A stretch of 28,069 bases of DNA from a virus. Its lineage: Duplodnaviria > Heunggongvirae > Uroviricota > Caudoviricetes. The position numbers were made by a program, and so were the translations under genes. The DNA is taken from IMG/VR virus record IMGVR_UViG_2874920711_000005; one strand, given 5' to 3'. Position 1 is the stretch's first letter, and each line of letters begins with the position of its first letter. Below, piece after piece: positions 22,103 through 25,436 of this stretch. Under the pieces are notes generated by a model that did not search any database, was not told the DNA's origin, and saw only the letters and a program-made list of their open reading frames with translations.

Positions 22103-24060
22103 ATGAGCACAAAACCACTCTTCCTGTTACGGAAAGCGAAAAAATCATCCGGTGAACCTGACGTCGTCCTGTGGGCAAGCGACGATTTTGAATCGACCAG
22201 CACCACTCTGGACTATCTGCTCGTTAAGTCAGGTAAAAAACTGAGCAACTATTTTAAAGCTGTTGCCACAAATTTTCCTGTCGTTAATGACCTTCCCCTG
22301 AAGGTGAGATCGATTTTACCTGGAGTGAACGCTATCAACTCAGCAAAGACTCCATGACATGGGAACTAAAACCGGGAGCAGCGCCAGACGACGTTCACCA
22401 CCAGGATAATGCTCAAGAAACCAAAGAACTGGCGGGAGGCCAGGAAGAAAACGCGCAGGCAGACGCCCACGAGGATTGCCAGGATTGCGAAGTCTCTGTA
22501 GCCACTTTGCGGTTCACACAGCGTCTTCTGCACATTTTTACGTATGCTGCCGGGGATCGGAAATACCTGCATCATGCCACCCGTGAACAACGCAAACACA
22601 TTACTGCTCTTGAGATGGATCAGGAAAACAGCTATGTCCAGAATCTGCTGTTGGCCATACGCGGCATGGCAGAACCGACAACTCTGGATAATGCCGCCCT
22701 GCTCCGCCTGACTGATGCAATTAAGGCAGTTTTCTCTATCACGAAAAAACATCAGCCCTATGAATTTAAGAATTTCATTTCAGCCTGGCTGGATACCGAA
22801 CACATTGATCGCGGTCTTCTGACAAAAGAATGGCGAAAAGGGAATCGTGTTTCACGCATCACTCGCACGACTTCCGGTGCTAATGCTGGCGGCGGGAACC
22901 TCACCGATCGCGGCGAAGGTTTCGTCCACGATCTGACGTCACTGACGCGCGATGTAGCCACTGGCGTACTGGCCCGTTCAATGGACGTGGACATCTATAA
23001 CCTTCATCCGGCACACGCTAAACGCATTGAGGAAATTATCGCTGAAAATAAACCACCCTTTTCTGTTTTCCGCGACAAATTCATCACCATGCCTGGCGGG
23101 CTGGATTATTCCCGCGCCATCGTGGTTGCGTCCGTGAAAGAAGCACCAATTGGGATCGAGGTCATCCCCGCACACGTCACTGAATATCTGAACAAAGTAC
23201 TGACTGAAACCGATCATGCCAACCCTGATCCGGAAATCGTGGATATTGCCTGCGGTCGCTCCTCTGCCCCGATGCCGCAGCGAGTAACAGAAGAAGGAAA
23301 ACAGGACGATGAAGAAAAACCACAACCATCTGGCGCAATGACAGATGAACAGGCAACGGCTGAAACAGTGGAACCGAATGCAACTGAACATCATCAGAAC
23401 ACGCAGCCGCTGGATGCTCAGTCACAGGTAAATTCTGTTGATGCGAAATATCAGGAACTGCGGGCAGAACTCCATGAAGCCCGGAAAAACATTCCGCCCA
23501 AAAATCCTGTCGATGCAGACAAATTACTGGCTGCCTCTCGCGGAGAATTTGTTGAAGGGATTAGCGACCCGAATGATTCGAAATGGATTCCCGGTCATCA
23601 TATCTCCTCAAATGAAGTCAAAAAAACGGAAAATGAAGTGCGACAGACTGAAGATAAACAGCACCAGAACAGCGAACCGGAGGAGGGAACACCCTGCAAT
23701 CAGACTGGCGAGGATAACTGCCCTGACTGTGGCGCGGTGATGGGAGACGCAACTTATCAGGAAACTTTTGACGAAAAAAAACCAGATGAAGCACAGGAAG
23801 AAGAGCCGAAGAAAACGGAAAAAGCTGATGATTTGTTACCGGAGAACGCTGGCAGCGATCAGCATAATGATAGCAATAATGAAACTGGCGAAGATGAACT
23901 CAACTGGAAAAAACAGGTGTTGATTGCGGCGGTTTACGGTTTATGTGCGAATCCTGCGTGCATAGCCTATGCGCCTGCAATCCCTGACATCGCAATGATG
24001 ATTGCCAACAAGCTTGAAAATTTTGGAGTGACCAGTGATGAGCGCTTACCCGATTTTTGA
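22103..24060 (+). pseudogene. RecE-like gene (homolog of the RecE N-terminal region only), split by a 1-bp frameshift in a C-run near 22294..22297 into 22103..22357 and 22354..24060; no exonuclease domain
   Basis: N-terminal [26 protein letters not shown]... and central [11 protein letters not shown]...[20 protein letters not shown]...[36 protein letters not shown]... match remembered E. coli RecE N-terminal region; reading frame restored by a +1 shift. Confidence 0.5.
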
Positions 24061-24334
24061 TCGTATTGAAGAAATGGCATGGGCTCGCCACTACCAGCAG
24101 ATCGTTCGTGAAGAAAAAGAAACGGAACTGGCGGACGACCTGGAAAAAGGTCTGCCTCAGCACCTGTTTGAATCGCTCTGCATCGACCATTTGCAACGCC
24201 ACGGTGCCAATAAACAGGCAATCAGCCACGCATTTGATGATGATGTTGAGTTTCAGGAGCGCATGGCAGAACACATCCGGTACATGGCTGAAACCATTGC
24301 CCACCACCAGGTTGATATTGATTTGGAGGACTAA
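24038..24334 (+). CDS. Hypothetical acidic protein, 98 aa, overlapping the 3' end of the RecE-like ORF
   Basis: ORF with ATG at 24038; no recognisable family. Confidence 0.35.
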
Positions 24335-24339
24335 AATCT

Positions 24340-25436
24340 ATGGCGCTTTTTCAACGAGCAATAAACACACAGGCCTATCTAAAAGCAGGAATTATGGGGT
24401 TTGCTGGCGACGGCAAAACCTACACAGCAAGCGAACTGGCTATTGGTCTGGTAATGCTTATGCGGCAACGGGGAATTGAAGCTGGTAACCGCCCGGTAAT
24501 GTTTCTGGACACAGAAACAGGCTCTGACTGGGTTAAACCCCGCTTTGATGCGGAAAATATCGAATTATTTACGGCAAAAACCCGCTCGTTTGTTGATCTG
24601 CTTGAAGCCATTAATGAAGCGGAAAGCAGCGGTTCCGTAATGATCATCGACTCCATCAGTCACTTCTGGACCGGATTATGCGACGAGTATGCCAGACGCC
24701 GAAACCGTAAACGAGGACTGGAATTTTCAGACTGGGCGTGGCTCAAACAGGAGTGGCGACGCTTTACCGATCGATTTGTTAACAGTCAGGCGCACATTAT
24801 TATGTGCGGGCGTGCAGGATATGAGTATGACTTTTTCGAAGGTGATGATGGCAAACGCCAGTTGGCAAAAACCGGTATAAAAATGAAAGCAGAAACAGAA
24901 ACCGGTTATGAACCCTCCATCCTGATCCAGATGGAGAAGCAAATGAACATAGAAACCGGTCAGGTGTGGCGCACCGCCAGAATACTAAAAGATCGCTCCA
25001 CCCGTATTGATGGACAGGTATTTTCAAACCCAACATTTAAAAACTTTCTTCCTCATATCGAGTTTCTTAACCTGGGAGGTGAACACCTCGGCATCGATAC
25101 CTCACGGGATAACAGTGAATTATTTGCCAACGACGGTACACCGACATGGCTAAAAGAAAAGCGTGCAAAAGAAATCGCACTTGATGAAATTATCGAGTTG
25201 CTCAACAAGCACCATGGGGCACCAGTAACGACGCCAAACGCGCAAAAGCTGATTTGCTGGAAAAAACATTCACCTCCCGCTCATGGGAAAGAATCAAAGG
25301 TATGGACTGGCCGACAATCAAAGCTGGTCGTAATGCACTATGGATTGAACTGGAAGGCGTTGAATATGCATTCCCGGATCCACAAACACAAAACGAAACG
25401 CAACAAGCAGGATACGATGAGAATATTCCGGTGTAA
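24340..25436 (+). pseudogene. P-loop NTPase, RecA-like/AAA_24 (Sak4-like) candidate recombination ATPase, apparently frameshifted near the G-run at 25216..25219 (body 24340 to about 25220, C-terminus continues in another frame to 25436)
   Basis: Walker A GFAGDGKT, FLDTETG motif, Walker B VMIIDSISH; the in-frame tail in the track ORF is junk-like while the alternative frame is protein-like. Confidence 0.5.

Follow-up and report, generated by a model that had tools for sequence, protein, structure and literature searches.

The region at positions 22103 to 25436 of a 28,069-nucleotide stretch of viral DNA (IMG/VR record IMGVR_UViG_2874920711_000005; the whole stretch is referred to as the window) is a recombination (Rec) module of a known lambdoid kind, which combines an anti-RecBCD protein with a RecA-like annealase and is present here in an uncharacterised variant. 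Its genes are located on the plus strand and encode a nuclease-less RecE protein (RecE-N, 22103..24060), a lambda-type Gam protein of 98 amino acids (aa; 24038..24334) and a RecA-fold ATPase of the AAA_24 family (24340..25436). The RecE-N gene encodes 652 aa once one C is restored at positions 22294-22297, and the ATPase gene encodes 365 aa once one G is restored at positions 25216-25219. With a probability that we put at about 0.7, the region represents the Rec module on the pL side of a Rac-like prophage beside ybhA, in which RecE-N with its tail, gam and the ATPase gene form a mosaic, the ATPase serves as the recombinase and the apparent frameshifts are under-calls. Based on its sequence and predicted structure, the AAA_24 ATPase probably acts as the phage recombinase.

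Gam and the recombination slot

The 98-aa open reading frame (ORF) between the two large genes encodes a lambda-type Gam. The protein matches PF06064 over positions 1-97 of the 98 in the profile (E = 8e-56) and phrog_259 among the PHROGs (E = 5.5e-54). It is 89% identical to the Gam protein of the Gam-Bet-Exo prophage OkiPb01695, and near-identical genomes annotate the product as a Gam family protein. A previous reading of the window, made from the sequence only, had placed the ORFs and motifs of the region accurately and had noted the presence of the 98-aa frame, but its identity had been missed. Once this frame is recognised as gam, the region as a whole has to be interpreted differently. 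The function known for the Gam family is to inhibit RecBCD (PMC3784561, PMC12315714), and no lambdoid phages or prophages with a RecBCD inhibitor but without a recombinase have been found (PMC3784561).

RecT, Bet, Exo, RalR, HK620 Sak4 and the single-stranded DNA-binding protein (SSB) of HK620 were used as queries in tblastn searches of the whole window, and none of them gave a match. The earlier claim that a RecT or exonuclease gene is absent thus holds even after correction of the frameshifts. The slot that is filled by RecT-RalR in Rac, or by Bet-Exo-RalR in sister prophages, is occupied by the ATPase gene.

The closest version of this arrangement in an isolated, inducible phage is found in the complete, UV-induced Cronobacter phage phiES15, which has the order Kil-Gam-ATPase-DUF7740-methyltransferase-xis-int. 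Its ATPase (gp08-gp07 for the gene pair) is 85% identical to that of the window (dN 0.06-0.16, with saturated dS) and is likewise encoded directly downstream of gam and upstream of xis-int. The phiES15 module differs from the window in having Kil rather than RecE-N upstream, and DUF7740 and the methyltransferase downstream. The phiES15 annotation lists no further annealing protein and no exonuclease. For the recombinase that has been found alongside every RecBCD inhibitor of lambdoid phages (PMC3784561), the ATPase is the only candidate in phiES15.

Related arrangements were observed in other genera. The order is KilR-Gam-ATPase in Salmonella and Kil-DUF1482-Gam-ATPase in Atlantibacter, with RecE absent in both. 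More distant homologues of the ATPase (60-75% identity), from Pseudomonas, Roseateles and metagenomic prophages, are always located in the interval that separates the repressor switch from the integrase, and in Achromobacter-type prophages (two contigs) an SSB gene lies directly downstream of the ATPase gene, as with Sak4. Outside E. coli/Shigella, RecE-N was never found upstream of the ATPase in the genera examined. The conserved unit, on comparison of gene orders, is Gam (or SSB) plus the ATPase, and RecE-N is a contingent neighbour. The sequence-only reading had regarded a stand-alone RecE-N as the partner of the ATPase, a view that is not borne out by phiES15, Salmonella and Atlantibacter, where Gam accompanies the ATPase without RecE.

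The AAA_24 ATPase

The ATPase matches Pfam AAA_24 (PF13479) with 52.3 bits, relative to a cut-off of 27 bits and to the 30 bits obtained for HK620 Sak4 itself. It contains the motifs GFAGDGKT, DTETG and VMIID, with Walker A at residues 20-27, DTE at residues 57-59 and Walker B at residues 100-104. This agrees with its earlier description as a RecA-like, Sak4-related P-loop protein. The corrected protein of 365 aa is the same as the ORF I6H01_RS20735 except at residues 292-293, a difference that stems from where the G was restored. The family is large, has a conserved length of about 365 aa and is unusually well conserved, its members in Enterobacteriaceae, Pseudomonas and Burkholderiales (Gamma- and Betaproteobacteria) being 60-75% identical. 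Across 81 aligned members, 79 residues are invariant, including G20-x4-G25-K26-T27, D57-T-E-T-G61, D104-S105 and a lysine-rich segment, K172...E191-P-S193.

The AlphaFold2 (AF2) model of the ATPase has a predicted local distance difference test score (pLDDT) of 85 and displays a RecA-type alpha/beta core at residues 1-232, followed by a confidently predicted helical C-terminal domain at residues 233-345 and a disordered acidic tail ending in DENIPV. The invariant loop at residues 158-193 is also disordered in the model. The L2 loop with which RecA binds DNA is likewise disordered without DNA. Comparison of the model with known folds identified a RecA/Rad51 fold, with RecA, RAD51 paralogues and Sak4 among the top matches, and a Foldseek search against viral models returned proteins named 'AAA domain' and 'RecA-like recombinase'.

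Sak4 and PF13479 are regarded as one family (PMC8093625), of which the HK620 member is an ATP-dependent annealase that is stimulated by its SSB (PMC5928155), and an AAA_24 protein from a mycobacteriophage is a DNA-dependent ATPase (PMC10194130). The ATPase resembles Sak4 in its RecA/Rad51-like core with Walker A and B motifs, in its AAA_24 score and in its position within a recombination module, where it replaces a Rad52-like annealase. However, Sak4 proteins are described as 'core-only', with about 220-245 aa and no additional domain (PMC2896510), as is the case for HK620 Sak4 (HkaL) and Sak4 of the Staphylococcus phage 80alpha type (PDB 8rc5). The ATPase of the window has 365 aa, its core being extended by a helical C-terminal domain (about 110 aa) and by an acidic tail. 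It falls outside the 'core-only' size range and was therefore set apart as a distinct, extended branch related to Sak4, which probably works like Sak4, judging from profiles and the model. The partners differ too, in that HK620 Sak4 pairs with Abc2 whereas the ATPase of the window pairs with Gam, with no phage SSB in the window.

Several results weigh against the interpretation of the ATPase as a recombinase working behind an active Gam. The best PHROG match of the ATPase is phrog_1366 (1e-79), which is labelled 'unknown function', and the Sak4-like phrog_124 follows at 1e-8. Direct comparison with HK620 Sak4 was not significant, with a blastp E of 0.11 and a single-sequence hhalign probability of 0.4%, and searches of all PDB sequences with phmmer and the family profile gave zero matches. 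The connection to Sak4 thus derives only from the fold comparison and from the PHROG and Pfam profiles. A phage SSB and an exonuclease are both helpful in known systems, and neither was found in the window. Finally, the prophage contains five Chi sites (GCTGGTGG), as compared to 0.9 expected, and none of 100 shuffled sequences reached five; Chi is thus enriched rather than depleted. All five are on the minus strand, at window positions 2026, 4554, 4994, 7134 and 11165, and hence in a single orientation and in the late-gene half. Typical Gam-encoding lambdoid phages avoid Chi (PMC3784561). Chi depletion was considered as support for an active Gam and was dropped, because Chi is enriched instead.

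No NCBIfam model for the ATPase was found. A cognate SSB gene next to the ATPase gene is absent in the window and in the enterobacterial cassettes of phiES15, Salmonella and Atlantibacter. The C-termini of the ATPase (...YDENIPV, window positions 25380-25436) and of RecE-N (...DERLPDF, 24025-24060) resemble the SSB tip, DDDIPF. The motif [DE][DE][IVLM]P occurs within the last 30 residues in 30 of 107 members of the ATPase family, as compared to about 3 in shuffled tails, and these last 30 residues have a mean net charge of -5. We treat these similarities to the SSB tip as leads and not as evidence.

RecE-N and the mosaic module

The RecE-like gene covers the non-catalytic N-terminal region of RecE only, as the sequence-only reading had proposed. 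It matches the NCBIfam model for exodeoxyribonuclease VIII at positions 1-596 of 877 with a score of 864, which is below the cut-off of 1269, and it aligns with residues 1-602 of the 883-aa RecE at 87-95% identity in tblastn searches. The sole Pfam match of the gene is PF06630 on its first ORF (E = 1e-38). The nuclease domain is the C-terminal PD-(D/E)XK domain (DUF3799), located at residues from about 564 or 606 to 866 in the RecE protein of K-12, and no tblastn match to RecE residues 603-883 was obtained anywhere in the window. Neither a nuclease motif nor a known fold was found in RecE-N. Compared with the RecE/RecT system of Rac, the 602 N-terminal residues are thus closely similar and the flanking genes (YdaE, DUF1187, xis and int) are of the Rac type, but the PD-(D/E)XK domain, recT and ralR are all missing from the window.

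In the AF2 prediction of RecE-N, made with 85 diverse relatives, residues 1-98 and about 125-400 form confident domains (pLDDT > 94), and residues from about 400 to 597 constitute an acidic, disordered linker with the remnant of a zinc ribbon. The protein had earlier been described as ending in an acidic tail. The acidic linker is indeed present, but it is followed by a hydrophobic segment of 55 residues that is not derived from RecE, ends in DERLPDF and consists of two helices, which were weakly predicted and with modest pLDDT. This tail module (23893..24060) overlaps the start of gam by 23 nucleotides (nt), and it stands where the PD-(D/E)XK domain would be, directly after the conserved ETGE junction. 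The tail was not matched by RecE profiles or by Pfam, and tblastn searches against 50,697 phage records gave zero matches; copies found elsewhere were just fragments of the same gene. A comparison with Kil showed that the tail is not Kil.

We calculated the ratio of nonsynonymous to synonymous substitution rates (dN/dS) between the RecE-N gene of the window and the copy in OkiPb01695 (NZ_AP042570). The ratio was about 0.16-0.2 for the folded part and about 0.2 for the 55 codons of the tail. In diverged copies, the reading frame is open over 646-677 aa. The low ratios, the tail included, argue that the nuclease-less protein is maintained by selection, as estimated from one pair of sequences and a short tail.

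Lack of the nuclease is not unusual for proteins of this kind. Among 65 diverse representatives of RecE-N relatives with at least 450 aa, a Pfam scan identified PD-(D/E)XK in 16, the DnaQ-like domain Rv2179c in 13 and a fused RecT in 3; about half had no recognisable C-terminal domain. The PD-(D/E)XK domain, the DnaQ-like domain or the tail module begins right after ETGE in each of three close E. coli forms. Thus, the domain comparison shows the N-terminal region of RecE as a free-standing module that is joined to PD-(D/E)XK, DnaQ-like, RecT or no catalytic module. A stand-alone nuclease-less RecE, to which the sequence-only reading had drawn attention as notable, is therefore common. Nuclease-less 'RecE-2' proteins of unknown role were already noted in lambdoid Rec modules by a survey from 2025 (Genome Res 2025, PMC12315714). 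Both 'RecE-2' and RecE-N are nuclease-less RecE relatives in an early-left Rec module. However, the survey describes the 'RecE-2' proteins as no more than distant relatives of Rac RecE, whereas RecE-N of the window is near-identical to the N-terminal region of the Rac protein and has a swapped C-terminal module.

The mosaic nature of the module was evident from a comparison with other genomes. Of 5426 complete genomes of E. coli, 105 have RecE-N joined to the tail and Gam, and just 10 have the ATPase gene. In OkiPb01695, the sole genome with this junction that was inspected for Bet and Exo, the same RecE-N and tail are followed by Gam-Bet-Exo-RalR. This prophage has in common with the window the position of the operon, Gam, the upstream RecE-N with its tail and the downstream order DUF1187-xis-int; the window has a single ATPase in place of Bet, Exo and RalR, so that relative to lambda Red both the dedicated exonuclease and the Rad52-type annealase are gone. 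In RM8385, the flanking genes are the same and enclose a full RecE-RecT-RalR set. The order of RecE-N and tail followed by Gam-ATPase is found in the window plus nine or ten other genomes, and all 10 E. coli carriers of the ATPase gene have both it and RecE-N in one operon. We conclude that the pairing of RecE-N with the ATPase is an accident of mosaicism among Rac-like prophages of E. coli and Shigella, because Gam-ATPase occurs without RecE, and RecE-N with its tail also precedes Gam-Bet-Exo.

Two further observations relate to the mosaic. In CFSAN029787 (NZ_CP011416, 5314-7251), the first ~230 residues of RecE-N are wholly different from those encoded at window positions 22103-22790 (dN about 1.0), and the rest of RecE-N, the tail, Gam and the ATPase are near-identical to the window, which indicates, at the level of sequence, a further mosaic breakpoint within the N-terminal region of RecE. 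In the 10 E. coli carriers, matches to the ATPase gene were located in 23 places, with a median of 2 and up to 4 per genome, of which a single full-length copy was confirmed in each genome. The same module may thus be present in more than one prophage per genome.

Alternative readings and prophage context

Both large genes are out of frame in the window, the RecE-like gene being read as two ORFs (22103-22357 and 22354-24060). This could be taken to suggest that the prophage is cryptic and decayed, with RecE-N reduced to a dead remnant, the ATPase gene inactivated by its frameshift and the whole module without effect. The 'incomplete' label given to the RecE-like gene of relatives by PGAP would fit this account, as would insertion sequence (IS) elements at window positions 18860-20011 and about 8413-9742 that are absent from the closest genome. 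Nevertheless, we find decay quite unlikely. Relative to NZ_CP065613, which is 99.6% identical, the window has C4 for C5 at 22294-22297 in the recE-like gene and G4 for G5 at 25216-25219 in the ATPase gene, and A7 for A8 at 25919. The last deletion fuses xis and int, which are separate, overlapping genes in NZ_CP065613, into a single ORF of 411 aa. All 17 single-base indels between the two sequences are deletions in homopolymer runs of the window, mostly in C or G runs of 4-6 (positions 2573, 6532, 6921, 7075, 7620, 8092, 10136, 10386, 10389, 10562, 11476, 13109, 16143, 20590, 22294, 25215 and 25919), a pattern of assembly errors rather than of decay, since they are scattered across the whole window. 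Any frameshift in the window is therefore to be distrusted. In E. coli, all 10 complete genomes with the ATPase gene have G5; the ORF of 1098 nt is intact in nine, the tenth having an IS1 insertion, and the phiES15 gene is also intact. The open frames and low dN/dS of RecE-N, tail included, are likewise at odds with decay. The frameshift sites named by the sequence-only reading are thus present, but they are most likely sequencing errors, and on these comparisons the organism itself probably has intact copies of the two genes.

An ATPase that is intact might still have another role in DNA metabolism, as a helicase, a helicase loader, an anti-defence protein or a modulator of RecA and the SOS response, and might merely have been placed in the early-left operon. 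We regard this as unlikely, although it deserves more weight than decay. The fold comparison ranked RecA, RAD51 paralogues and Sak4 highest, the gene lies directly beside Gam or SSB and in the exact slot of Bet or RecT, and the helicase annotations in the family are names only. A role as helicase loader is disfavoured because these phages have separate genes for replication initiation and loading: a ydaV-type ATP-binding gene is located outside the module in the near-identical prophage, as are O and P in phiES15. The PADLOC defence models gave zero matches for the ATPase, RecE-N, Gam, DUF1187 and the two small upstream proteins, and a reading of the region as a defence system was rejected on this basis. 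A different possibility is that RecE-N takes the place of the exonuclease and works with the ATPase as a dedicated recombinase of two components. The operon that both genes share in each of the 10 E. coli carriers and the purifying selection on the tail would agree with this, and full-length RecE is reported to enhance recombination between linear molecules more than its nuclease domain does (PMC11611040, citing Fu et al. 2012). We consider it very unlikely all the same, as all the other genera examined have the ATPase but no RecE-N with it, Gam-Bet-Exo is likewise accompanied by RecE-N with this tail, and RecE-N contains neither a nuclease motif nor a known fold.

As a mosaic Rec module with the ATPase as recombinase, the region would most likely operate as follows. 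The gene order suggests that the operon would be transcribed from the early-left promoter upon induction. By analogy with its family, Gam would block RecBCD and so protect linear and rolling-circle phage DNA. The ATPase would provide the phage-encoded recombinase that has been found in all Gam-encoding lambdoid phages, and single-stranded DNA would be supplied by host nucleases and helicases or by replication forks, because a phage exonuclease is absent. RecE-N would not be a partner specific to the ATPase but a modular accessory protein that acts without a nuclease, or perhaps just an inert remnant.

A bolder version of this scheme, which is speculative and rather unlikely in our judgement, would have the extended AAA_24 protein be a self-sufficient recombinase of a new type. 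It would use its tail to connect to the SSB network of the host, behind the Gam block and without a dedicated exonuclease or phage SSB. RecE-N with its alternative tail (D-E-x-[ILM]-P-D-F) would then be an interchangeable, nuclease-independent factor for DNA ends or synapsis, serving RecT, Bet/Exo or the ATPase.

Should the ATPase be an active recombinase, the RecA-like annealases of phages would have a second branch with an extended structure. If this holds true, the ATPase and Gam alone would be a compact two-gene candidate for recombineering, and phages of the phiES15 type, which have a RecBCD inhibitor but no recognised recombinase, would be explained. The natural nuclease-free versions of RecE-N are material for probing the role of the N-terminal region.

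The window is a chromosome segment of the E. coli/Shigella type with a lambdoid, Rac-like prophage, the terminus of which is at the integrase adjoining ybhA. Between 20.6 and 27.0 kb, the plus strand encodes in order the Rha regulator, a YdaE-family protein, a small hypothetical protein, the RecE-like protein, the 98-aa Gam, the AAA_24 ATPase, DUF1187, and the excisionase and integrase. The small DUF1187 gene (YdaC/RcbA-like; 25487..25675, plus strand) was identified from PF06688 (E = 1e-36) and from annotations, and has the same position as in Rac. The fused ORF of excisionase and integrase (25780..27015, plus strand) matches the Pfam families Exc, Arm-DNA-bind and Phage_integrase and marks the end of the prophage beside ybhA.

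Segments of the window that are not present in the closest E. coli genome are located at 1-1054, 18860-20011 and about 8413-9742. The first two are copies of one element, the ORF of which (1-1032 and 18961-20160, the second lying between the immunity region and rha) presumably encodes an IS630-like transposase. The insertion of ~1.3 kb at about 8413-9742 contains overlapping ORFs (8458-8868 and 8826-9731), a layout which we take to be that of IS3-family elements. The IS630-like elements suggest a host of the Shigella or enteroinvasive E. coli type. The prophage of the closest genome has four clustered tRNA genes (Gly, Thr, Arg and Ile) annotated upstream of its lysis genes, at positions 9927-10237 of the segment compared, which would correspond to about 10.8-11.1 kb of the window.

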